DNA from: Planctomycetota bacterium
Lineage (GTDB): Bacteria > Planctomycetota > UBA8742 > UBA2392
Assembly: GCA_019186845.1 (NCBI GenBank)
Contig: JABARW010000018.1
Location: forward strand, 3,180-67,179
Direction of reading: 5' to 3'
DNA length: 64,000 bases
Made by a program: the position numbers and the translations under genes. Positions 9,012-59,414 of the stretch are shown here, piece by piece (the first letter of the stretch is position 1; each line of letters opens with the position of its first letter). The notes below the pieces were generated by a model. It saw only the letters and a list, made by a program, of their open reading frames with translations. It searched no databases and had not been told where the DNA came from.

Positions 9012-10310
9012 TCAGGCCGCCAGCCACTCGGCCATGCGCAGGATTGCCGTCGTCACGTTGGGCGCCACGGCCTTGAGGAAAGTCTCGTCCAGGGCGCGCT
9101 CGGCGCCCCATTCCCGCGCCGCGGCAAGCGCGCGGGCACCGTCGAAATCCACGTAGGCCAGGCGCGCCGACAACTCATCGGGCGCGCGGCCAAATTCGCT
9201 ACCGGGCAGAATCGCCACGCCGGTTTCCTGCAACAGGCGCTCGCAGAGCTGGGCTGAATGCCTGATTTTGCGCGCCCGCAGCTTGTCGCGCAGGGCCGAG
9301 AATTCCGGAAACAGGTAAAACGCGCCCTGCGGGCTGGGTACAGCCGCGCCGGCGTCGCTGAGCCTGGCCGCGCACCAGTGGCCCAGGGCGCTGAGTACAC
9401 GGCGCGCCAGCACGAGGTATTCCTCGATGTCTGTGCCGCCGCGAAAAGCCCGCACGGCGGCGAACTGGATTGGCGCGCTGGTGGCCGTGTAAGTCTCGCT
9501 GCCGACGCTGGACATGGCATTCTGAAGCCAGCCCAGGTCGCGCGGAAACATGAACGTGCCCAGCCGCCAGCCGCCGGCCCCGCACCATTTGGACAGCCCG
9601 GAACTGATGATGGTGCCCTCGGGGTAATGGCGCGCCACGCTGACGTGCAGACCGTCAAACTGCAGCTCGCCGTAGATTTCGTCCGACAGCAGCACCAGCC
9701 GATACTGACGCGCCACGGCCGCAAGCTGCTCCAGTTCCGTTGGGCTGTAGGTGAGACCCGTGGGGTTGCTGGGGTAGTTCAGGATCAGCACCCGGGGGCG
9801 CTTGGGGTCGCTTTCGCAATGCTCAGCCAGTTGGGCCGGCGTAAGGCGATAGCCATCCTCGCGGCCGGTGTGGAGCCAGTGGATGTTGCGCCCGATAATG
9901 CGGGCCTGTGGCGCATAGCTCACCCAAGCCGGCGTCGGAATCAGGATGTCGCCATAAAACACAAGCTGAAGCAGGAACATCAGCTCCTTGCTGCCGGGCC
10001 CGATGAGCACGTTGTCGGCCGTGCCCTGCACACCCTGGCGCCGCCTGTGATACTCGGCCACGGCCTCGCGCAGGGCGGGCAGTCCTTTGACCGGAAGGTA
10101 ATCCTTCTGGAAGGCGTTGGCGCGCAACTCCTCGACAATAGGCGCCGGCACGGGAAAGGGAGACTGCCCCAGCCCCAGCTTGAAAACCTGCCGCCCCTCC
10201 TGCCGTATGGCGTCGCTGCGCTCATTGATCGCGACGGTGGCCGAGGGCTTCATGCCGCGCACGTTGAGGTTGAGGTGAACGTCGGTTGCGGGCTGGCGTG
10301 AGGAAGTCAT
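9012..10310 (-). CDS. Class I/II PLP-dependent aminotransferase
   Basis: MKPSATVAINERS..., NYPSNPTG, and the PLP-lysine motif SSGLSKWCGAGGWRLG. Start set at the ATG at 10310 (MTSSRQP). The 728-aa track ORF is an upstream extension with no coding signal. Confidence 0.75.
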   Translation of the reverse strand: MTSSRQPATDVHLNLNVRGMKPSATVAINERSDAIRQEGRQVFKLGLGQSPFPVPAPIVEELRANAFQKDYLPVKGLPALREAVAEYHRRRQGVQGTADNVLIGPGSKELMFLLQLVFYGDILIPTPAWVSYAPQARIIGRNIHWLHTGREDGYRLTPAQLAEHCESDPKRPRVLILNYPSNPTGLTYSPTELEQLAAVARQYRLVLLSDEIYGELQFDGLHVSVARHYPEGTIISSGLSKWCGAGGWRLGTFMFPRDLGWLQNAMSSVGSETYTATSAPIQFAAVRAFRGGTDIEEYLVLARRVLSALGHWCAARLSDAGAAVPSPQGAFYLFPEFSALRDKLRARKIRHSAQLCERLLQETGVAILPGSEFGRAPDELSARLAYVDFDGARALAAAREWGAERALDETFLKAVAPNVTTAILRMAEWLAA

Positions 10311-10643
10311 GAAGTCCTTTGAAGAATTCTCCGCGGCGGCTTCAAGCCCCGCAAAAAAAAATTCTGTTCGCGGCCTGTTGTGTTTGTGCGGCGAACCCCG
10401 CCTGCTTACACTTCGGCTGGCAGCCCCGGCGCGCACCTCGCAGCACCGGCTGCCCGCAAAAGCTGATATCAGGCCACCTTCAGGCCTGTGTGATGTAGGC
10501 CGAGTCGCGCGGAAGGGCCGCAACAGGGCCCACGACCGCTCCGCAGGACCGGCCCAGGGAACGACAACCGCCGTGAGCTTTGGGGCCTGATCCCCCGGGG
10601 CTGTTTCGTCGGCGCCGCCAGGGCGGCGCGAAAGGAGATCACT

Positions 10644-12017
10644 ATGACTGCCACGCTTCAGTCCCGGCCGTTTCGTATCATCACCCAGCTCGACATCAGC
10701 CGCATTCCGCAGTTGCAGCACCTGGATCCGGACTTCGTGCTGTCCATGAAGGCCGTGGCTTCCGTGCTGCCCTTTCGCGTCAACAACTACGTGCTTGAAG
10801 AACTCATTGACTGGTCCAACATTCCGGCCGATCCCATCTTTCAGCTCGTGTTTCCGCAGCCGGGCATGCTGCATCCCCAGGACCTCGCTTCCATGCGGGC
10901 CCTGATCGCGTCCGGCGCGCCTCGCCCTCGCATCCTCAAAGCCGCGCGCGAGATCCAGCATCGCATGAACCCGCACCCGGCCGGACAGAAGCAGCTCAAC
11001 GTACCGGAGATGGACGGCGAACCCGTGGCCGGCATGCAGCACAAGTACCGCGAAACCGTACTGTTCTTCCCCCAGGCCGGGCAAACCTGCCACGCCTACT
11101 GCACCTACTGCTTCCGTTGGGCGCAGTTTGTCGGCATCGAAGATCTCAAGTTCGCCAGCGGCAGCCCCCAGACCCTGGTCCGCTACGTCGAGCAGCACCC
11201 GGAAATCACCAGTGTGCTCTTCACCGGCGGTGACCCCCTGGTGATGAACTCAAAGGTTTTGCGCCAGTATGTGGAGCCCCTGCTAAACATCAGACACCTG
11301 CTCAGCATCCGCATCGGCACGAAGTCCGTGGCCTACTGGCCCTATCGTTTCGTCAATGATCCCGACTCCGACGACCTGCTCAGGCTCTTCGAACAGGTGG
11401 ACCGCAGCGGCAAGAACATGGCCATCATGGCGCACTTCAGCCACCCGCGCGAACTGCAGACGGACATCGCGCGCGAGGCCCTGGCTCGCCTGGCCAACGC
11501 CAACGCCACGGTGCGCTGCCAGGCGCCCCTGATCCGACACGTGAACGACGACTGGCGCTGCTGGTCGGAAATGTGGCGCGAGCAGATCCGCCACAACGCC
11601 ATTCCCTACTACATGTTCGTGGAGCGCGACACCGGCCCCAAGGAGTATTTCAAAGTGCCGCTGGCCCGCTGCCTCGACATCTTCCAGAAGGCCTACGCCA
11701 CCGTCAGCGGCCTGGGACGCACCGTACGCGGCCCCTCCATGAGCTGCACGCCGGGCAAGGTGGTTGTCGACGGCGTCACGGAGATTCAGGGTCAGAAGGT
11801 CTTCGTGCTCAAGTTCCTGCAGGGACGCAACCCGCAGTGGTCCGGCCGTATCTTCTTTGCCGCTTACGATGAAAACGCCGCTTGGCTGGATGATCTGAAG
11901 CCCGCCTTTGGCGAGGACCGCTTCTTCTTCGAACCCGAACTGGAGGCCATGAAGGCCAGCGGCAATGCGCGGGTGTGGCAGAAGCCCGGTTTCCCGGGCT
12001 TCGTCGAGGAGAATTGA
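10644..12017 (+). CDS. KamA-family radical SAM aminomutase (lysine 2,3-aminomutase-like)
   Basis: Radical SAM CxxxCxxC motif in a KamA context (HKYRETVLFFPQAGQTCHAYCTYCFRWAQF). AAAGGAG RBS 6 nt upstream of the ATG. Confidence 0.75.
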   Translation: MTATLQSRPFRIITQLDISRIPQLQHLDPDFVLSMKAVASVLPFRVNNYVLEELIDWSNIPADPIFQLVFPQPGMLHPQDLASMRALIASGAPRPRILKAAREIQHRMNPHPAGQKQLNVPEMDGEPVAGMQHKYRETVLFFPQAGQTCHAYCTYCFRWAQFVGIEDLKFASGSPQTLVRYVEQHPEITSVLFTGGDPLVMNSKVLRQYVEPLLNIRHLLSIRIGTKSVAYWPYRFVNDPDSDDLLRLFEQVDRSGKNMAIMAHFSHPRELQTDIAREALARLANANATVRCQAPLIRHVNDDWRCWSEMWREQIRHNAIPYYMFVERDTGPKEYFKVPLARCLDIFQKAYATVSGLGRTVRGPSMSCTPGKVVVDGVTEIQGQKVFVLKFLQGRNPQWSGRIFFAAYDENAAWLDDLKPAFGEDRFFFEPELEAMKASGNARVWQKPGFPGFVEEN

Positions 12018-12524: not shown

Positions 12525-13619
12525 TCAGGCCTGCTTGGCCATCTCCTTGAGCCGTTCGGCTCGTTCCCACTTGCGCAGGGCGAAGATCACCTCGTCCAGG
12601 CGTCCTTCCATGACCTGCTCAAGGCCGAAGTTCTCGTTGCAGCGATGGTCAGTGCAGCGGTTTTGCGGGAAGTTGTAGGTGCGGATCTTCTCGCCGCGCT
12701 TTCCTGAGCCAATCACGCTGCGGGCTTCTTTTCGTTCAGCGGCGATACGTTCCTGCTCGCGCTCGTAAAGCTTGGCCCGCAGAATGCGCAGCGCCTCGTC
12801 CTTGTTCTTGTGAAAGCTGGGCGTCATCTGGCAATCCACGAAGATACCCGTGGGAATGTGCCGCATCTGGCAGCGGGAAGCCGTCTTGTTCACGTTCTGG
12901 CCGCCGGGGCCGCCGGAGCGCGCAGCCTGGATGTCGAGATCGGCCTCATTGATCTTGATATCCACCTCTTCCACCTCGGGCAGCACGGCCACGGTGGCCA
13001 GCGAGGTGTGAATGCGGCCCTGCGTTTCCGTCGCGGGAACGCGCTGCACGCGGTGTCCGCCGGCCTCGTACTTGAACCATTTCCATACGTTGTCGCCGGT
13101 GATCGAGTAGGTGCCGGACTTCACGCCGCCGACTTCGCTCTCCACTTCATCCATCACCACGAGCTTGAACTTGTGCTGGGCGCAAAAGCGCGCGTAGGTC
13201 TCCATCAGCTCACGGGCAAACAGCGTGGCTTCGTCACCGCCTTCGGCGCCGCGGATTTCAAGGATACAGTTGCGGCTGTCGCTGGCGTCCTCGAGCACCA
13301 GCATGTCTTCGGCTTCCTCGGCCAGCCGGGCGAACTGGGGCTTGAGTTCCTTGAGCTCTTCCTCGGCCATGGCGCGCATTTCGGCGTCGCCGGACTTGTC
13401 AGCGATAATCTCCTCGTCGCCTTTGATCTGGGCCTCGAGCTTGCTCAGTCGATCGCAAACCTCCGCCAGCTCCTTGAGCTGGCCGCGCTCGCGCTGGACT
13501 TCCTTGAAGAGCGCCTGGTTGCCATAGACGGCGGGGTCTTCAATGGATTTGGTCAGCTCCGCATAGCGCGCTGCGCGCTTTTTCAGCATTTCAAGGACAA
13601 CCATGACCTGCTCCCGCAA
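12525..13619 (-). CDS. prfA: Peptide chain release factor 1
   Basis: GGQ motif (SGGPGGQNVNKT) and the RF1-specific PAT tripeptide (RVPATETQGRIHTS). Confidence 0.9.
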   Translation of the reverse strand: MREQVMVVLEMLKKRAARYAELTKSIEDPAVYGNQALFKEVQRERGQLKELAEVCDRLSKLEAQIKGDEEIIADKSGDAEMRAMAEEELKELKPQFARLAEEAEDMLVLEDASDSRNCILEIRGAEGGDEATLFARELMETYARFCAQHKFKLVVMDEVESEVGGVKSGTYSITGDNVWKWFKYEAGGHRVQRVPATETQGRIHTSLATVAVLPEVEEVDIKINEADLDIQAARSGGPGGQNVNKTASRCQMRHIPTGIFVDCQMTPSFHKNKDEALRILRAKLYEREQERIAAERKEARSVIGSGKRGEKIRTYNFPQNRCTDHRCNENFGLEQVMEGRLDEVIFALRKWERAERLKEMAKQA

Positions 13620-13637
13620 TGATTCCTTACGTCAGCC

Positions 13638-13675
13638 AAATGAAAAGCGTGGCCGGGCTTGCGCCCCGCCACGCT
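13638..13675 (-). terminator. Hairpin plus U-tract between rpmE and prfA (terminator/attenuator-like)
   Basis: On the minus strand: AGCGTGGCGGGGCGCAAGCCCGGCCACGCT followed by TTTCATTT. The stem has 8 bp, a bulge, then 3 bp. Confidence 0.5.
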
Positions 13676-13688
13676 CGATTTCACCGGG

Positions 13689-14084
13689 CTAACGTCCGCG
13701 ACCACGGCCTCCGCCACCGGGGCCGCCGCGGCCCTTCTTCTCTTCCTTCTCCTCCACCGGAATGATCACTTCGCGGTTGGCGCCCAGCAGGCGCTTGCGC
13801 TCCAGCGCCGTCTTGAGGTCTTCCTTGGGCGCGGCCACTTTCTTGACGTCCAGCTTCTGGGTGGCCTTGACCTTGGCCTTGTCCTTGTCCCAGGCGAAAC
13901 GCTTGGTGAAGGCATCCACGCGGCCGGCGCTGTCCACGAACTTCTGCGTGCCCGTGTAGAACGGGTGGCAGCCGCTGCAGATGTCAACGCTCAGCGTTTC
14001 CTTCTTGTACATGATGTGGAACTTGTTGCCGCAGGTGCAGCTCACTTCGCAGAGGTGCACTTTCGGATGGATGTCAGCCTGCAT
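13689..14084 (-). CDS. rpmE: 50S ribosomal protein L31 with a ~65-aa basic C-terminal extension
   Basis: MQADIHPKVHLCEVSCTCGNKF...CSGCHPFYTGTQKFVDSAGRVDAFTKRF is canonical L31 with zinc-type Cys. A K/E-rich tail follows, ending in GRGGPGGGGRGRGR. Confidence 0.85.
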   Translation of the reverse strand: MQADIHPKVHLCEVSCTCGNKFHIMYKKETLSVDICSGCHPFYTGTQKFVDSAGRVDAFTKRFAWDKDKAKVKATQKLDVKKVAAPKEDLKTALERKRLLGANREVIIPVEEKEEKKGRGGPGGGGRGRGR

Positions 14085-14340
14085 GGGTCTCTCGCTCTGG
14101 CCCCCGCGGAACCGGACGACAGGGCCTCATGGCCTGCCGCGCTTCCGGCCCTCCTTGGCGGGCGGAAAATTGGACGCGCAACTGTAGCGAGGAACGCCCC
14201 GCTGGCAAGGGGTGAGCAGGGGCGGGGTAAGAGTCCGGCGGCCGGAATTCTTCTGGAACCGGGATGCCCGATGATTCGTATTGGTAGTGCATCTGACGCG
14301 CACTAGACTGCCTTTGAGAACCCCATCGCTTGGGAGACGC

Positions 14341-20538: not shown

Positions 20539-21453
20539 ATGCAGTACTCCGAGAAGATCCGCGATCATTTCCTGCATCCGCGCAATGCCGGCGAACTCGA
20601 GGACGCCACCGTAATTGGCGAGGCCGGCTCGCTCGCCACCGGAGACGCGTTTCGCCTTTACCTGCGCATTAATTCGCAGGATGTGATTGAAGAAGCCCGC
20701 TTCCAGGCCTTCGGCAGCCCGACCGCCATTGCGACCAGCAGCGCCCTGACCGAAATGATCAAGGGTAAGCACGTCGATGAGGCCGTACGCCTGAGCACGC
20801 GGGACATCGCGGCCTACCTCGATGGTGTGCCGCAGGAGCGCATGCATGCGCCGGTCATGGGCATGGAGGCGCTGGAAGACGCCTATGCCAAGTACCGGCG
20901 CCTTGAAACGCTGGACGAAGACGGGCAGTCCGCACGCATCGTCTGCCGCTGCTTCAATGTAAGTCACGGCCGTATCGAGCGCGCGATTCGCGACCACCAC
21001 CTGAGCACCATTGCCGAAGTCACCCACCACACCAAGGCCGGCGGTGACTGCAACTCGTGCCACGCGGACATTGAAAACCTGCTGGCACGCGCCCGCGCCG
21101 AGCGCGCCCGCGCAGCCGAAGAAGAGCGCATCCGCACGGCCCGCGACAATGCGCGCAAGGCCCAGCCCGCGGGCGGCATCTCGGACTTGCAGCGCGCAGC
21201 GCTGATTCAGGAGGTGCTGGACCGTGAGGTGCGGCCGGGCCTGGCCATGGATGGCGGCGACATGGAACTAGTGAGCGTGGAGGGCGCCACGGTGCGCGTC
21301 AAGCTCGGCGGCCACTGCGTCAGTTGCAGCAGCAGCACGGCCACCATGCGCTACTTCGTGGAAGACAAGTTGCGCGAACTGGTGGACCCCGCTATTGAGG
21401 TCATTGACATCACCGAGCACGGGCAGGAGTTGCACGCACCGCCCATGCGCTGA
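20539..21453 (+). CDS. nifU: NifU-type Fe-S cluster protein (IscU-like domain lacking Cys ligands, central 2Fe-2S domain, C-terminal Nfu domain)
   Basis: The full three-domain NifU architecture is present. Central CRCF...GGDCNSCH and C-terminal GGHCVSCS are conserved. The N-terminal domain reads GSLATGDAF, FGSPTAIATSS and MHAPVMG. Confidence 0.85.
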   Translation: MQYSEKIRDHFLHPRNAGELEDATVIGEAGSLATGDAFRLYLRINSQDVIEEARFQAFGSPTAIATSSALTEMIKGKHVDEAVRLSTRDIAAYLDGVPQERMHAPVMGMEALEDAYAKYRRLETLDEDGQSARIVCRCFNVSHGRIERAIRDHHLSTIAEVTHHTKAGGDCNSCHADIENLLARARAERARAAEEERIRTARDNARKAQPAGGISDLQRAALIQEVLDREVRPGLAMDGGDMELVSVEGATVRVKLGGHCVSCSSSTATMRYFVEDKLRELVDPAIEVIDITEHGQELHAPPMR

Positions 21454-21465
21454 CCGCGGACTTCC

Positions 21466-22689
21466 ATGGCCGACCTCCTGTACTTTGACAATAACGCCAC
21501 CACGAAGCTGGCGCCCGAAGCCCGCGCCGCCCTTGAACCCTTCCTGGGCGAGCTGGTGGGCAACCCCAGCTCGGCGCATAACGCGGGAGGCCGCATCCTG
21601 CACGCCGTGGAAAAGGCGCGCGAGCAAGTCGCCCTCATGCTGGGCTGCGAGACAGGAGAGATCATCTTCAACTCGGGCGGCACCGAGGGCCTGAACACGG
21701 CCATTGAAAACGCGCTGGACGCCCTGCCCACGCGCAAGCAGATCATCATTTCCAAAGTCGAGCATTCGGCGGTGTCAAACGTGGTGCGGCCCCTGGCGCG
21801 CAAGGGCTATCGCATCACGGAAATCAACGTGGACCGTTTCGGACGCCTCGACCTCGCCCAACTGAATCACGAAGTGGGCCATGAAACGGCCCTGATCGCG
21901 ACGCTGTGGGCGAACAATGAAACCGGCGTCGTGGCACCCGTCGCCGAAATCGGCGACATGGCCAAGCGCGCGGGGGCCATGTTCGTGGTTGATGCCGTGC
22001 AATGCCCCGGCAAGCTGAAACTCGACATGAAGGCGCAGGCCGCCATCGACTACCTCGCCGTTTCAGGCCACAAATTCCACGCCCTGCCCGGCTGCGGCGC
22101 ACTCTTCGTGCGAAAGGGTACCTCCTATCGGCCCCTGATACGCGGAGGCAACCAGGAGCGCGGCCGCCGCGCCGGCACAGAAAACGTGCCCGGCATTGTC
22201 AGCATGGGGGCGGCAGCCCGCTGCATCAACGAACACCTCGACGCCGACATCAAGCGCCAGACCGAGCTGCGTGACATGCTGCAGTCCGGCCTGCTGGCAA
22301 AGCTCGATAACGTCATCGTCAATGGCGACGAGCAGTCCCGCCTGTGTAACACGCTCAACGTGGGCTTTGAGTTCGTTGAAGCCGAGGCCGTCCTGCTGAT
22401 GCTGGATGCCGCGGGGGTCGCCGCCAGTTCCGGCAGCGCCTGCGAGTCGGGCAGCCTGGAAACAAGCCACGTGCTCCGCGCCATGGGCGTGCCGTTCACG
22501 GCCATCCATGGCAGCGTGCGCTTTTCGCTCTCGCGCTACACGACAGCGGCCGAGGTAGGAGCGCTGGTAGACAGCACGGTCAAGATCGTCAGGCGCCTGC
22601 GCGAGATCAGCCCCTTTGGGCGCGAAAAGCCCGCCCCGAAGAAGCCCGGGGACCTCGAAGCCCACAAGGCCTACTTCGCTACGACCTGA
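21466..22689 (+). CDS. nifS: Cysteine desulfurase (class V aminotransferase)
   Basis: PLP-lysine motif SGHKFHALPGCG. Active-site loop SSGSACESGSLETSHVLRAMG. Confidence 0.9.
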   Translation: MADLLYFDNNATTKLAPEARAALEPFLGELVGNPSSAHNAGGRILHAVEKAREQVALMLGCETGEIIFNSGGTEGLNTAIENALDALPTRKQIIISKVEHSAVSNVVRPLARKGYRITEINVDRFGRLDLAQLNHEVGHETALIATLWANNETGVVAPVAEIGDMAKRAGAMFVVDAVQCPGKLKLDMKAQAAIDYLAVSGHKFHALPGCGALFVRKGTSYRPLIRGGNQERGRRAGTENVPGIVSMGAAARCINEHLDADIKRQTELRDMLQSGLLAKLDNVIVNGDEQSRLCNTLNVGFEFVEAEAVLLMLDAAGVAASSGSACESGSLETSHVLRAMGVPFTAIHGSVRFSLSRYTTAAEVGALVDSTVKIVRRLREISPFGREKPAPKKPGDLEAHKAYFATT

Positions 22690-22740
22690 GGGCGATTGCC
22701 GGCCATCGACAACGCCGGCGGCTCAGCGGAAAATGCCCCC

Positions 22741-23460
22741 ATGGATTTCGACCACCCCGTGGCCGCTGTGATTCTCGCGCTGGACGCGCACGAGGTGCCC
22801 CACGCCCGTCTGCTCGCCCGCGAACTCGCCGCCGACTGCGACAGCCAGACCATGCTCGTGCTCGGCGAGGCCTTCGCCGAGCGCGGCTTGGTGTCTCCAC
22901 TGGCGGACCTGTGGCAGTACCGATGGTCGCGCCAGGGACCCGTTGAGGTCGAAGCCGAGGCCTACGCCCTGGCCATCAACGCTCTGGCTGTCGAACACAT
23001 GCGCGAAATGCGCTTTGACGAAGCCCGCCCTCTTCTGCTGAAGGCGCTCGAGGCCCTGCCGCAAAACCTGGCCCTCATCCAGAACTTCGCTTCCTGTTCC
23101 CTGGAACTCGGAGAGTTCCAGGCGGCGCTCGACGGCGTGAATGAAGCCGTGTCCCGGGCTCCCCAGGATCCCGCGCTGCACGAACTTCGCGGCCGCGTGC
23201 TCTATCAATCGGGCGATGTCGAGCTCTCCGTACCCGAGTTCACACAGGCTTTTGACGCCGGGCGGGCCTCGGCGGGCCTTTGGCTGCTGCGCGCCCTCTG
23301 CCTCGATGCCCGCATTGATGAAGCCATCGAGGACATGGAGAAGCTGCTCGCAGAGCACCCCGAGCGCGGCAAGGCCATGCTGGACCTCGAGTTTTCCGAC
23401 CCGGGTTCGCCCCTGCAGATTCTGCGGGACGATGAGCGCGCCCGCCCTCTGTTTGAATGA
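22741..23460 (+). CDS. TPR-repeat protein
   Basis: Repeated 34-aa helical units (EARPLLLKALEALPQNLALIQNFASCSLELGEFQAALDGVNEAVSRAPQD...). The start is uncertain (ATG 22741 or TTG 22696). Confidence 0.5.
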   Translation: MDFDHPVAAVILALDAHEVPHARLLARELAADCDSQTMLVLGEAFAERGLVSPLADLWQYRWSRQGPVEVEAEAYALAINALAVEHMREMRFDEARPLLLKALEALPQNLALIQNFASCSLELGEFQAALDGVNEAVSRAPQDPALHELRGRVLYQSGDVELSVPEFTQAFDAGRASAGLWLLRALCLDARIDEAIEDMEKLLAEHPERGKAMLDLEFSDPGSPLQILRDDERARPLFE

Positions 23461-31094: not shown

Positions 31095-33641
31095 ATGAAG
31101 CAGATTTCCCTCGGGCTGGTGCTCTTGCTGCTGGCCTCCACGCTGGGCGCGCAGGCCGAGCTGATTCGCGCCAAGGCCGTCCTGGAGCCGGTAGACCCCA
31201 AAGAAGGCAAGGCAGTCCCCGGCGGCGAGGTGAAGCTGCGCCTCCAGTTCGAGGTAGACAAGGGATTTCACGCCTACCACAAGGACAACCCGGGTTACAG
31301 CAAACCCATCAGCGTCAAGTTCAGCGAGCTTTCGGGCCTCACGGAGGTGGGAGAGGCCCAGTGGCCGAAGTATCACGAGGGCCACCCCGACCCCAAGGAC
31401 CTTTCCTGGGTCGAGTACGAACTCAGCGGGACCTTCGAGATTGTGTACAACTTCAAGGTGCCGCTCGCGTCCAAAGGCGCCCTGAAAGTCTCGGGCAGCT
31501 ACGAGGCCCAGGTCTGCGACGAGAAGGGCTGCACTGATCGCAGCGGAGAGTTCAGCGCCAGCCTTGACGTCTTTGATGCGCCCCGAGCCACGCCAGGCGG
31601 GGGCGACAGCGAGGCGCTCAAACGCCTCGAAGATAAAGTCGAAGCCCTGGCCCAGGAGCTCGGGTCCCATAAGAAGGACCTCGAAGCCATCCGCAAGGCC
31701 AACGAGGAGCTGAACAAGGCCCTCAAGGACTTCATCAAGTCGCAGCAGGAGAAGGCCGGGCCTTCGGGCGAGAAGGACGACCACGGGTTTTATGTCAGCT
31801 ATGATTTCGCCATCGCCGAGGCGCGCAAGCAGGGCAAGCTTTTGCTGATTGACTTCAACGGCGAGTACTGAACTGCATGCCGCCGCATGGAGCGTGAGGT
31901 CTTCACGCTGCCGAAAGTCAAAGAGCTGCTGGCGAAGTTTGTTGTGGTGGGCCTGAAGACGGACATCAAGGACTCACGCATCAACGAACTCTACGCCAAG
32001 TACAAGGATCCTGAAGATCCTACGATCCCCTATTACGTGGTGCTGGACCACAACGAAAAGGCCCTGGGCGGCATCCATGCCACCCTGGGCCCGGAACCCA
32101 ACGGCGACGATGACAACGGCTTGCCCCCCTCGGCCTTCGTGAAGTTCCTGGAGGAAATGAGCGCCAAGGGCGTAACCGGCGACAAGCCCGTCGAGCCCAA
32201 GCCTCAGCCCAAACCCGCCGCGGACAAGCCGCCCGCCGCCCAGCAGGGTGATGCTCAGGCCGAAGATGAGGGGCCCACGTCATTCACGGCCCTGTGGAAG
32301 TTTCTTCTGGAGGCCTTCGTCGTCGGCTTGATCACGCTGCTGACACCCTGCGTTTTGCCCGTACTGCCCCTGACCATCGGCTTCTTCGTCAAGCAGGCGG
32401 AGCAGAAGCGTCCGCCATTGATCACGGCCGGCATCTACTGCGGCGTCATCCTTGTGAGCTTTACATCGATTGGAGTGCTGGCGTCCCTGCTGCTGGGAGC
32501 TTCCGGCGCCGGAGATATCGCGCGCAGCTGGTGGCTCAACCTGGGCCTCGGCATCCTGTTCATTGTGCTGGCCCTGAGTTTCCTCGGGCTGTTTGAACTG
32601 CGCATGCCCACCTTCCTTACTTCCAAGGCGGGTCAGGCCCAGTTCCAAGCCAACAAGGCGGGCAAGGGCTATGTCGCCGCGATGATCAGCGGCACCTCGT
32701 TCACACTGATTTCGTTCTCCTGCACGGGGCCCTTTGCGGCCTTTGTGCTGGCCCGCGCGGCTTCGGGCGATGTCATCATGCCCGCCTTGGGGATGTTCGC
32801 CTACGCGTCAGGCATGGCCCTGCCTATTTTCATCATGGGCCAGTTCCCCGCGCTGATCAAACAACTGCCCAAGTCCGGTGGCTGGATGAACGCCATCAAG
32901 GTGGTGTTTGGCCTCATCGAGCTGGCCCTGGCCTTTGCCTACCTGGGGTTTGCCGAGCTGGCGCTTCGGGGCTCTGCCCCGGAGATCTTCTCCAAGAATC
33001 TGGTCATTGCCGTGTGGGTGGCCTGTTCCGTGGCGGCGGGCCTGTACCTCTTTGGCCTGTTCCGGCTCCCCCATGACCATGACCGCGTTGAGCAGATTGG
33101 GGTGTTCCGCGCCATCTTTGCCCTGGCTTTCTTCTGCCTGGCGGCCTTCATGCTGCCCATGCTGTTTGGCGCCCCGCTGGGCAACTTCGGAGCCGTCATA
33201 CCACCCGGCGCCAAGGACGCCCCCTCGGCATTTGGCGGCAAGGGTGGCGGCGAAGGCGGCGACCATCTCAAGCCACCCGTCAAGTCCATGGACCAGGCCA
33301 AATCCGAAGCCGCCAAGACGCAAAGGCCGATCTTCATCGACTTCACGGGCCCTGCGTGAAAGGACTGCCTGTGGGTTGAGGAGAACATTCTCCACAGCCC
33401 CAAAGTCAGCCGTGTGCTGAATGACAAGTTTGTGTTTGCCGAGATGTGGGTGGAGCGCGGCAGTGAGGGCGAAGCCGTGCTGAAGGGTCTGAAGTTCAGC
33501 TCAGCCCTGCCCCAGTACGCCGTGGTCGACGCGGAAGGCAAGCTCGTCTCGCGCTATGACCGGCCCCAGAATGTTGCGTCCATCACGCCGGACGCCTTTG
33601 CCGCGTGGCTGGAAGAGAGCCTCAAGTCGTACCGGCCCTGA
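31095..33641 (+). CDS. DsbD-like thiol:disulfide reductase with two predicted selenocysteines (signal peptide, DsbD-alpha-like domain, coiled coil, Trx-like UxxC, DsbD/CcdA TM core, Trx-like UxxC)
   Basis: One reading frame (31095, 31887 and 33414 share the same phase) is interrupted only by TGA at 31869..31871 and 33357..33359. Readthrough gives DFNGEY-U-TAC-RRME and DFTGPA-U-KDC-LWVEE. TM core Cys motifs are LLTPCVLPVLPL and ISFSCTGPF. The alpha-domain motif is QVCDEKGC. A strong terminator appears only after 33641. Confidence 0.75.
31891..31909 (+). promoter_or_regulatory. Candidate bacterial SECIS hairpin 1
   Basis: A-GCGTGA-GGTCT-TCACGC-T: a 6-7 bp perfect stem with apical loop GGUCU, starting 20 nt after the TGA at 31869. 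Confidence 0.6.
33367..33399 (+). promoter_or_regulatory. Candidate bacterial SECIS hairpin 2
   Basis: Lower stem CTGTGG/CCACAG (33369..33374 with 33392..33397). 5' bulge GTTG. Upper stem AGGA/TTCT (with one G.U pair). Apical loop GAACA about 26 nt after the TGA at 33357. Alternative foldings exist. Confidence 0.4.
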
Positions 33642-33659
33642 CCGTGCCGCACGCATGAC

Positions 33660-33694
33660 CGGGAAGCCGCCTGCAGGGCGGCTTCCCGCGTTTT
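33660..33694 (+). terminator. Rho-independent terminator
   Basis: CGGGAAGCCGCC-TGCAG-GGCGGCTTCCCG (12-bp perfect stem) followed by CGTTTT, 19 nt after the final TGA of the DsbD-like gene. Confidence 0.75.
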
Positions 33695-33767
33695 GGGCCG
33701 GTTCTTTGGGCGTTCTTTTTGGTCAAACGTCAGGAAAGGGGTCGTTATCTCTGGTAAACTCAGGGGG

Positions 33768-38758: not shown

Positions 38759-39769
38759 ATGGCCGGGGAGATTTCACGAAACGAACGGCAGTTGAACCTC
38801 ATCAGCGCCTTGCTCAAGGCGCGTGATGGCATTGACTGGCAGCGGATTTCGACCATCGCCGGCTACGACGACGGCCTCTCACGCCGCTCGCTGCAGAAGC
38901 GCCTCGAACGCGACATCAAGGAACTTCAGGAAGTCGGGCTCCTCGTCACCGCCACCACGGGCGAAGAAGGCACCCGCACCTACGCCATCGACCGCGGCCG
39001 CTGCCTTCTGCCCGCCCTGCGCCTGACGCCCGAGCAGCGCGTGCTGCTTTACCGTGTGGGCGTCAGCTACCTCGACGAAGGCGGTGCGGGCCCCCTGACG
39101 GAGCACCTTTCGCGCGCGCTGGTCAAATTGCAGGCCGGATCCGGCATTGACGCCCTGCCCGACGAACTGCCCCCGGGCATTCTGCGCCGCTCCCTGCACC
39201 GCCGCCCGGCCGAGGCCAGACACCTCGACGTCATCGGCCTGGCGCTGCTCGAGCGCCGGCGCATCCGCTTCAATTACGGCAGCCGCCGGCGCGAAGAGTC
39301 GCGCCGCCAGGTGGCCCCGTACGCCCTCGTGACGCGGCGCGGCGGCTGGTACCTCATTGCCTACGATCCGGAGCGCAAGGGCGAACGCACGTTCAAGCTC
39401 TCGCGCATTCGCGGCAAAGTCAGCTTCGCGCCCGACAGCCGCGTGGGTGAATACGAAATCCCGGCGGGCTTTGACGCGGAGCGAAGCTTTTCATCCGACA
39501 TTTTCGGCGCCGGGGCCGGGGCATTTTGCGAAGTGCAAGTGCGCTTTGACGCCGACGTCGCCTTCATCATTGAGAACGAGTTTTCCGGCCTTCACCGCAT
39601 CGAGCCCGCCGCGGGCGGCGGCGTGGTGCTGCACCTCGAACGCGCCTATCCCTTTGAGCTGATGCGCTATCTGGGCGAGTTCGCCGGCCACTGGGAAATC
39701 ATCGCGCCCAAAGCCCTGCGCGAACAGACGCTGAACTGGGTTCACACAGCCCTGGGGAGGCTGGCATGA
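38759..39769 (+). CDS. HTH-WYL domain transcriptional regulator (PafB/PafC-like, first of a pair)
   Basis: N-terminal wHTH (RQLNLISALLKARDGIDWQRISTIAGY). WYL domain (RIRFNYGSRRREESRRQVAPYALVTRRGGWYLIAYDPERKGERTFKLSRIRG). Confidence 0.8.
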   Translation: MAGEISRNERQLNLISALLKARDGIDWQRISTIAGYDDGLSRRSLQKRLERDIKELQEVGLLVTATTGEEGTRTYAIDRGRCLLPALRLTPEQRVLLYRVGVSYLDEGGAGPLTEHLSRALVKLQAGSGIDALPDELPPGILRRSLHRRPAEARHLDVIGLALLERRRIRFNYGSRRREESRRQVAPYALVTRRGGWYLIAYDPERKGERTFKLSRIRGKVSFAPDSRVGEYEIPAGFDAERSFSSDIFGAGAGAFCEVQVRFDADVAFIIENEFSGLHRIEPAAGGGVVLHLERAYPFELMRYLGEFAGHWEIIAPKALREQTLNWVHTALGRLA

Positions 39770-40749
39770 GCGAGGTGGCCCGGCTGGTTTCACTGGCCAG
39801 CTTCCTGGCCTCGCACCCCCGGATCTCTCTGGGAGAGGCAGCGCGCGCCACGCACCGCACGCCCCAGGAACTGCTCAAGGACATGAACGCCCTGATGATG
39901 GTGGGCGTCCACCCCTACACACCCAGCGACTACATCGGCTATGCCACTTCAGGCCCCGGGGAAAACGGCCTGATTACCCTCTACTCCGCCGATCACTTCA
40001 AACGTCCGCCCAACTTCACGCCCCAGGAAGCCCTGGCCCTGAAGTACGCCCTGGAGCACTACGCCCAGGCCGCCGACGGCCCCACCCGCCGCCAGATCGA
40101 CGAACTTGCCGCGGCGCTGGCCGAGAGCCTTCACGGCCAGGCCGCCCGGGAGCTCTCAAGGCGCGAGCGCGGCTTCATTCTTCCCCGCCGCACCGAGCGC
40201 ATGCGCGAGATGATCGGGCGGCTGGCCCGCGCCGGCGAAGAACGGCGCGTAGTGGAGCTGGAGTACTTCTCGGCCCATCGCGGCACGCTTTCGCGCCGCC
40301 GCGTCCACCCCTACCGCATAGTGGAGTCCGGATCCCACTTCTACCTGCTTGCCCTGTGCGAACTGGCCGGGGCCACCCGCCACTTTCGCGTGGACCGCAT
40401 CCGCCATGCGCAGATGCTGGATGAAGTCTTCACGGAAGCCGTCCCGGTCCGCAGCAAGGCGGGCCGCATGGAGCCCGCCATGCGCGGCCGGCAGTTCGAG
40501 ACGCTCATGGTCGAGTTCAGCCGTGAAGCCGGGCCCGACGTGCTTGAGGAATACGGCCAATTGCCCGACGTTGAAGTGACCGCCAAAGCCAACGGGCGCG
40601 TCGTCCTGAAGCTGCCTCTGTTCAACGAAACCTGGGCCGTGGGCTTTGTGATGAGCTTTGGCGAACACGCCACCATTTTGCGCCCGCAGAGTGCCCGCGA
40701 CGCCCTCAAACGCACCCTGGAGCAGGCCCTGAAGGCCCATCAGGCATGA
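39766..40749 (+). CDS. HTH-WYL domain transcriptional regulator (PafB/PafC-like, second of a pair)
   Basis: 4-nt ATGA overlap with the upstream gene. WYL domain (VVELEYFSAHRGTLSRRRVHPYRIVESGSHFYLLALCELAGATRHFRVDRIRH). Confidence 0.8.
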   Translation: MSEVARLVSLASFLASHPRISLGEAARATHRTPQELLKDMNALMMVGVHPYTPSDYIGYATSGPGENGLITLYSADHFKRPPNFTPQEALALKYALEHYAQAADGPTRRQIDELAAALAESLHGQAARELSRRERGFILPRRTERMREMIGRLARAGEERRVVELEYFSAHRGTLSRRRVHPYRIVESGSHFYLLALCELAGATRHFRVDRIRHAQMLDEVFTEAVPVRSKAGRMEPAMRGRQFETLMVEFSREAGPDVLEEYGQLPDVEVTAKANGRVVLKLPLFNETWAVGFVMSFGEHATILRPQSARDALKRTLEQALKAHQA

Positions 40750-57752: not shown

Positions 57753-58016
57753 TCAGGGATAGACATCGCCGTTCTCAAGCGCCTTGGCGTCTTCATAGGG
57801 CGCGGCCACGCGCCGATAGAGTTCGAGCTTGGCGCACTCCAGGGCCCCCACCAGCTCGTTCATGCGCGCGTAGGAGCGCGGCTCCAGCAGCGCGGCGCAG
57901 AGCCGCGAAACCACGTAGTTCAGGTGCCCGGCGAACTTCTCGCGCGGCAAGGCGGCGGCCAGGGCGTCGATGGCTGCGTCGAGCCTGGCGCGCTCCTCCT
58001 GCTTGATGTAGGGCAT
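57753..58016 (-). CDS. Small conserved hypothetical protein (87 aa)
   Basis: A clean ORF (MPYIKQEERARLD...PYEDAKALENGDVYP) with good third-position GC. I cannot name a family. Confidence 0.5.
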   Translation of the reverse strand: MPYIKQEERARLDAAIDALAAALPREKFAGHLNYVVSRLCAALLEPRSYARMNELVGALECAKLELYRRVAAPYEDAKALENGDVYP

Positions 58017-58037
58017 GGACTCTCCAGGCGGGCCAGG

Positions 58038-59414
<1,377 letters not shown>

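Follow-up and report, generated by a model that had tools for sequence, protein, structure and literature searches.

Two TGA codons interrupt an otherwise continuous reading frame in a Planctomycetota genome, and the question they raise is whether they end genes or specify selenocysteine (Sec). The locus occupies positions 31095-33641 of the window, by which we mean the whole 64,000-nucleotide stretch of contig JABARW010000018.1 that was analyzed. A preliminary description of this DNA had proposed that three open reading frames (ORFs) at 31095..31871, 31887..33359, and 33414..33641 form one 848-residue protein with two Sec residues. Our analysis confirmed the coordinates: the three ORFs share one frame, and their sole interruptions are TGA at 31869-31871 and at 33357-33359. 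The comparative evidence supports the proposed interpretation, and on the sequence comparisons reported here we consider it highly probable that the locus encodes one DsbD-type reductase in which both UGAs are decoded as predicted Sec.

When both TGAs are read through, the gene extends over 31095..33641 on the + strand, with its true stop, TGA, at 33639-33641, and encodes an 848-residue DsbD-like protein-disulfide reductase with a predicted mass of ~90 kDa. The first UGA (UGA-1, 31869..31871, +) corresponds to predicted Sec259 and the second (UGA-2, 33357..33359, +) to predicted Sec755. Each TGA opens an xxC active site of a thioredoxin fold, in the contexts FNGEY-TGA-TAC-RRMEREVF (site 1) and FTGPA-TGA-KDC-LWVEEN (site 2); the UxxC peptides quoted earlier (U, Sec) were exact. 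The GC content at third codon positions (GC3) of the three segments is 0.81 to 0.83, matching the real genes of this window of 64% GC. Where the gene differs from its orthologs 3' of each TGA, the changes are mostly third-position ones (counts at positions 1/2/3 were, for instance, 14/12/42 and 11/7/32), and the 93 codons past UGA-2 are free of stops in five of five orthologs. Besides the two active-site columns, no in-frame TGA occurs anywhere in the family genes.

An AGGTG Shine-Dalgarno-like motif lies immediately 5' of the gene. Past the true stop, folding identified a terminator-like GC hairpin followed by GCGUUUU (33659..33694, +; the hairpin itself at about 33659-33689), and the 59 nt that hold it (33642-33700) fold at -34.8 kcal/mol. 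The preliminary description had placed a strong terminator after the third segment only. The stable hairpin is real, but only four U residues follow it, and a terminator scanner omitted it because too few U follow. What the scanner did report here was four weak sites, two per strand, which is at chance level (expectation, 2.7 ± 1.5).

Public gene callers split the locus into pieces of 258, 490, and 75 residues, the fragmentation that had been anticipated. The NCBI entry "hypothetical protein EDM80_11310" is the middle fragment (100% identity), and none of the database matches to the protein carries a selenoprotein label. Most likely the locus encodes a single membrane disulfide reductase of 848 residues and is not three genes.

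We searched Pfam with the read-through translation, placing Cys at both TGAs. The resulting layout, which bears out the one proposed earlier, including the alpha-like fold and the eight hydrophobic segments, is a signal peptide, a DsbD-alpha-like fold, a helical hairpin, a thioredoxin (Trx) domain with UxxC, an eight-transmembrane (8-TM) DsbD core, and a second Trx domain with UxxC. The redox residues are C141/C146, U259/C262, C419, C543, and U755/C758. All of the following coordinates are on the + strand. The inferred signal peptide, MKQISLGLVLLLLASTLGAQA (31095..31157), has a hydrophobic segment at residues 6 to 24 and a helix at residues 2 to 17 in an AlphaFold2 model that covers the N-terminal piece only (pLDDT, 86). 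Residues 24 to 159 (31164..31571) form an Ig-type beta-sandwich of the DsbD-alpha type, with the Cys pair C141/C146 in QVCDEKGC, as indicated by the AlphaFold2 model, Foldseek, and Pfam. The Pfam match to DsbD_N (residues 40 to 147) reached 24.0 bits, slightly below the 25-bit cutoff. Foldseek with the alpha-like model returned the nDsbD structures 1l6p, 1z5y_D, and 1vrs_B at TMt values of 0.56 to 0.58 and also ScsB-N (6c29); the sandwich resembles the solved N-terminal domains of E. coli DsbD, Neisseria DsbD, and ScsB. A helical hairpin or coiled-coil linker follows at residues 172 to 220 (31608..31754), with model helices at 172 to 191 and 196 to 220.

The first thioredoxin-like domain (Trx1; 31776..32129) is DsbD-gamma-like, carries the site U259-T-A-C262, and matches Pfam Thioredoxin_2/7 over residues 243 to 303, with PF13098 at 36.2 bits against a cutoff of 27. 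In alignments with PDB structures, site 1 falls on the CVAC of the solved E. coli cDsbD and also aligns with 3f9u and 2lst, a set that includes a Bacteroides Trx7 structure. The DsbD/CcdA transmembrane core (32277..33194) was recognized by Pfam (DsbD_TM, PF02683, residues 401 to 615; E = 1.7e-31) and by hydropathy, which gave eight hydrophobic segments. Its two Cys residues, C419 (TPCVLP) and C543 (FSCTGP), are invariant throughout the family. The C-terminal thioredoxin-like, or gamma, domain (Trx2; 33282..33638) carries the site U755-K-D-C758 and matches Pfam Thioredoxin_7 over residues 730 to 813 (E = 6e-25). The protein is therefore built as a DsbD (alpha, 8-TM beta, and gamma) into which a further gamma-like Trx module is set, separating alpha from beta. 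We infer that the alpha-like domain and both Trx modules are periplasmic, because the protein has a signal peptide and an even number of membrane segments. Domain number varies among relatives: in one ortholog lineage (L006, 1534-2976; L007, 1543-2985) the alpha (DsbD_N-like) domain is duplicated and an insertion is present, giving a 480-residue piece before UGA-1, and several alpha-like repeats occur in more distant relatives, such as P0004, of 1321 residues.

The TGAs are conserved. GCA_008363065.1 has the three-piece gene as well, as do two Logan assemblies made independently from runs SRR8109491 and SRR8109492, and QEVF01 ("Planctomycetota bacterium PLA1") contains a copy at 96% identity with the TGAs present. 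Further assemblies with the gene include GCA_964269145.1 and the near-complete long-read MAGs JADJRK01, JACKID01, and JAOSKM01. Nine loci (L001-L009) provided six distinct orthologs of 69 to 81% identity, all with both TGAs at the same columns. Flanking synteny is kept in the orthologs: the upstream neighbor is phosphoglycerate-mutase-like, and the downstream one encodes a PAS-GAF-GGDEF protein.

We then extended the comparison with a census in which one genome per GTDB species was scanned, yielding 75 loci, and the codon was read at both active sites. One or both TGAs were found in 21 Planctomycetota species representatives. TGA occupies both sites in the window, its orthologs, L010, L011, L014, L016, and L020. 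A single locus, L018, has TGA at Trx1 and Cys at Trx2, and the reverse arrangement is found in L017, L019, L024-L028, and L031. No Trx1 was found in L021-L023, L029, and L030, which have TGA at Trx2 (L030 begins at a contig edge, and its Trx1 state is not readable), bringing the loci with TGA at site 2 only to 13, and L012, L013, and L015 have Cys at both sites. Read by column, the UGA-1 codon stays TGA in every close ortholog, as well as in L010, L011, L014, L016, L018, and L020; 11 further family loci have TGC or TGT there. The UGA-2 column holds TGA in 25 loci, 20 of them GTDB species representatives; TGC stands there in L012, L013, L015, and L018 and, outside Planctomycetota, in nearly all homologues. 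Distant relatives nearly all have Cys at the TGA columns, including all those from Bacteroidota, Acidobacteriota, and Gemmatimonadota; the exceptions are the distant Planctomycetota loci L062 and L066, with TGA at Trx2. Homologues P0004, P0006, and P0007 likewise have Cys at both columns, so the alignment with homologues that the preliminary description called for gave Cys where it predicted Sec.

In a neighbor-joining tree (unbootstrapped), the Cys/Cys group is nested within the U-bearing groups, a placement that implies at least two Sec/Cys switches. As read from their codons, the two sites toggle between predicted Sec and Cys independently of each other. Because the same two TGA columns recur in all fetched orthologs and in many species-level relatives, this comparison excludes coincidental TGAs at both columns, in line with the earlier argument that two chance nonsense mutations at these codons would be unlikely.

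The residues around the two sites differ between forms. At Trx2 the residue after Sec is nearly always Lys (U-K-N/D-C), and C-[A/S/V/I/T]-N-C is the pattern of the Cys forms; for Trx1 the patterns are Y-U-[G/T/S]-[A/P]-C with Sec and [F/N/S]-C-x-P-C with Cys. Other DsbD-like clades, represented by L062, L066, and the soil metagenome (Ga0066903) loci L101 and L106, have TGA at the gamma-domain nucleophile together with hairpins of their own. Examples are FIDFTGLT-U-KNC with CGAGAAG-AGUGU-CUUCUCG and FDFTGVG-U-[S/P]NC with CUGGAG...CUCCAG. The TGA at the gamma nucleophile in these four loci indicates that the trait extends past the window's family. About half of 20 metagenome pattern matches were chance matches in noncoding sequence.

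The model of the bacterial Sec insertion sequence (bSECIS) specifies a loop of 3 to 9 nt, a stem of 4 to 16 bp, a G at loop position 1 or 2, a spacing of 16 to 37 nt, and a minimum free energy (MFE) of ≤-7.5 kcal/mol (PMC13188914). A search for such elements had been suggested, and a hairpin does follow each TGA; the hairpins are confined to the UGA-bearing genes. The first, SECIS-1 (AGCGUGA-GGUCU-UCACGCU; 31891..31909, +), has its apical loop from 26 nt past the UGA, a 7-bp stem, and a core MFE of -13.0 kcal/mol, and it agrees with the model on all four criteria. Its stem, synonymous positions included, is invariant in 11 loci with TGA at site 1, three of which are about 47 to 48% identical and one 72% identical at the protein level; the alifold energy is -10.3 kcal/mol, and the loop is GGUCU or CGUGU. 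The corresponding region in 11 Cys loci varies freely and has no consensus structure (-0.12 kcal/mol).

The second hairpin, SECIS-2 (GGGUUGAGGAGA-ACAU-UCUCCACAGCCC; 33373..33400, +), has its loop from 25 nt past the UGA. In the window clade its core MFE is -16.0 kcal/mol, its single-sequence z score is -3.2, and its alifold energy is -15.5 kcal/mol, with two compensatory pairs among seven orthologs. It agrees with the bSECIS model in stem, spacing, and energy, that is, on three of the four criteria, but not in the loop. The sister U-K-N-C clade has a SECIS-2 of the form G-N-N-N-C-G / UGGAA / C-G-N-N-N-C, with a 6-bp stem that is 94% paired, and this hairpin fits the model throughout. Compensatory changes occur at three of its six pairs, and its covariation is 0.543, compared with 0.172 in shuffles (0 of 500 reach 0.543) and ≤0.275 in slid controls. 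In this clade (L014, L016, L017, and L019-L031; columns 14-30), the codons of the SECIS arms and the residues that they encode change jointly. The paired residue changes T..S, L..D, L..G, and T..F give RTVERS, RLVERD, RLVERG, and RTVERF. As these alignments read, predicted SECIS structure in the RNA drives coordinated amino acid replacements in the U-K-N-C clade.

Several results weigh against the reading of this locus as a DsbD-type selenoprotein. The invariant SECIS-1 stem offers no variation and so gives no covariation signal, and its single-sequence fold is no better than those of shuffles (z = -0.5). The ACAU loop of the window-clade SECIS-2 lacks the G that the consensus bSECIS model requires. 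The protein scores 153.2 bits with the NCBIfam DsbD model (PRK00293), short of the cutoff of 330; it is a divergent DsbD relative and not an equivalog. Finally, neither the window nor 820 kb of sequence from related loci yielded selA, selB, selD, or tRNA-Sec, a result that is uninformative on the rest of the genome. ARAGORN and Rfam gave no tRNA or Rfam match in the 64-kb window, Pfam gave no SelA, SelB, or SelD domain among about 50 window ORFs, and ARAGORN gave no tRNA-Sec in 28 related loci. A tblastn search with E. coli SelA, SelB, and SelD had no match in the 820 kb, which comprise the window and 756 kb of related loci. Some Planctomycetes are on record as having the full Sec machinery (PMC4807772), and the trait thus exists in the phylum. 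What doubt we retain about Sec decoding concerns mainly the Sec machinery of the host and the G-less SECIS-2 loop.

These same two points, the Sec machinery of the host and the window-clade SECIS-2 loop without its canonical G, are what favor read-through of the UGAs without Sec, whether by near-cognate insertion of Trp or Cys or by hairpin-stimulated suppression without SelB. We regard such read-through as improbable. The UGAs sit exactly on the redox-nucleophile Cys columns and exchange with Cys codons only, and SECIS-1 and the sister-clade SECIS-2 fit the bSECIS model, with a G[G/U] loop and a spacing of 16 to 26 nt. UGA/Cys exchange together with a bSECIS is the standard signature of a bacterial selenoprotein.

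It is less probable still that the TGAs are true stops, arising from nonsense mutations in a pseudogene or separating three independent small genes, even though public gene callers report three pieces and TGA is the usual stop here. The evidence already contradicts both versions. The TGAs lie on the catalytic column, are conserved across many species, and are flanked by sequence under codon-position-3 bias. Three separate genes would have each Trx fold cut at its active site, and the Met at which piece 2 would "start" is a conserved Trx-domain residue that is present in Cys forms too (CRKMEK). Conservation of the TGAs, the codon-position-3 bias, and the lack of stops past UGA-2 exclude pseudogenization and sequencing error alike. 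Sequencing or assembly mistakes that turned TGC or TGT into TGA, a possibility the preliminary description wished to see checked, are scarcely credible, since the same TGAs occur in GCA_008363065.1, both Logan assemblies, QEVF01, and many other samples and species. A genome-wide reassignment of UGA to a sense codon (Trp or Gly) has a negligible probability and is already contradicted by stop codon usage, because TGA is the commonest ordinary stop in the window (28 of 42 long ORFs with coding-like GC3) and no other window gene requires read-through.

If the locus does encode a two-Sec reductase, its product would be a DsbD-type protein-disulfide reductase that is exported and anchored in the membrane, and each of the two in-frame UGAs would be decoded as Sec under the direction of a SelB-binding bSECIS inside the coding sequence, about 25 nt downstream. 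In E. coli DsbD, electrons pass from thioredoxin to beta C163/C285, then to gamma C461/C464, then to alpha C103/C109, and on to substrates, and the first residue of the gamma CxxC makes the mixed disulfide with alpha. By analogy, cytoplasmic thioredoxin would reduce the membrane pair C419/C543, which would reduce the C-terminal module U755/C758. This module would in turn reduce the alpha-like pair C141/C146, either directly or via the extra module U259/C262, and the alpha-like pair would pass electrons to periplasmic substrates. The attacking, surface-exposed residue at both Trx modules would be a selenolate, and Sec at the first position of both modules would make the relay run through selenylsulfide intermediates. 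Such a relay would be expected to have faster exchange and to resist irreversible overoxidation.

The likeness to the DsbD proteins of E. coli and Neisseria covers the N-terminal Ig-like domain with a Cys pair, the DsbD_TM core with Cys residues in TM1 and TM4, and the C-terminal Trx-like domain. Unlike those proteins, this one has an extra Trx-like module and a helical hairpin between alpha and beta and predicted Sec in place of Cys at both Trx nucleophiles. In the alpha domain, the Cys residues are spaced CxxxxC here and CxxxxxC in E. coli DsbD.

Selenoproteins with related domains have been described. We take the domain model cd02953 to be that of DsbD-gamma. The Global Ocean Sampling (GOS) study named a family "Trx-like 2" and tied it to cd02953 (PMC2398784). 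Predicted members of this "thiol:disulfide interchange protein" or "Trx-like 2" selenoprotein family (PF13098, UxxC) come from Geobacter, Syntrophus, and the GOS metagenomes (PMC1794560, PMC2398784, PMC13188914). The family shares with our protein a DsbD-gamma-type thioredoxin fold with Sec for the first Cys of CxxC, and both sites here are UxxC. By its catalogue description (reference sequence, WP_011366075.1), the family has one Sec, and no membrane core is named; in the present protein, two predicted Sec-bearing Trx domains are joined with an alpha-like domain and an 8-TM DsbD core in one chain.

TsoB, a rhodanese/DsbD fusion-like selenoprotein (NF045694), also has a DsbD-type membrane core, and its hidden Markov model matches residues 374 to 687 of our protein. 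The score of 155 bits, however, falls below the cutoff of 805, the Pfam search of our protein gave no rhodanese match, and the TsoB motif is UxxxxU and not UxxC in Trx domains (PMC13188914). The Trx7/PDZ domain-containing selenoprotein (NF041199) likewise has Sec in a Thioredoxin_7-type domain but differs in its score (47.8 bits against a cutoff of 300), in its PDZ domain, which our protein lacks, and in its catalogued motif, CxxU rather than UxxC. The protein passed none of the NCBIfam models. A 2026 catalogue lists 119 prokaryotic selenoprotein families, of which these three (the "thiol:disulfide interchange protein" family, TsoB, and Trx7/PDZ) are the pertinent ones and none is based on PF13899 or PF02683 (PMC13188914). 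We found no catalogued full-length two-Sec DsbD, and none with the extra Trx module or with family-wide independent Sec/Cys toggling. Sec in DsbD-gamma-like Trx domains is already catalogued (PMC2398784, PMC13188914), and the gene most likely extends a known selenoprotein class and founds no new one.

Three other same-frame TGA runs in the window were considered as recoding candidates and rejected. At 20539-23460 (+), NifU-like, NifS-like (Aminotran_5), and TPR ORFs lie in one frame split by TGA, and each has its own start and family. A glycosyltransferase, an epimerase, and an ORF without a Pfam match form a similar run of ordinary adjacent genes with their own starts. At 57753-59372 (-), enolase is followed, after a TGA and in the same frame, by an 86-residue high-GC3 DUF6899 ORF that has its own Met; these are separate genes. 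The window encodes release factor RF1 (12525-14126, -; PCRF and RF-1 domains and a PAT tripeptide) next to ribosomal protein L31 and contains no RF2; the release factor being RF1, it gives no information on UGA. Two adjacent WYL/WCX regulators at 38759-40749 (+), one with a PafC-type helix-turn-helix, resemble a PafBC pair. Two long high-GC3 ORFs overlap on opposite strands at 9012-11198 (-) and 10644-12017 (+). An aminotransferase domain lies in the C-terminal half of the minus-strand ORF. The plus-strand ORF has no Pfam match but the higher GC3 (0.83), and for this reason the aminotransferase gene probably begins well past the first start codon of its ORF.

A broader reading, which we put forward tentatively as possible rather than probable, is that these genes make up an uncatalogued selenoprotein family. 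Its members would be full-length Planctomycetota DsbD-type transmembrane reductases with up to two Sec residues, a periplasmic relay arm running wholly on selenolate chemistry, and independent Sec/Cys switching, and the G-less ACAU SECIS-2 would represent a noncanonical bSECIS class read by the SelB of this lineage. If the Sec reading of the locus is correct, a whole family of Planctomycetota DsbD-like reductases, from organisms that are common in wastewater and anammox-type metagenomes, is misannotated in public databases, where each gene stands as two or three products, "hypothetical" or truncated. The family would also illustrate clearly how SECIS RNA structure constrains, and covaries with, the protein sequence that it overlaps. 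The bacterial selenoproteome would gain a membrane-anchored two-Sec electron-relay enzyme, and the natural U/U, U/C, C/U, and C/C series of one protein could show what selenium buys a thiol-disulfide relay.

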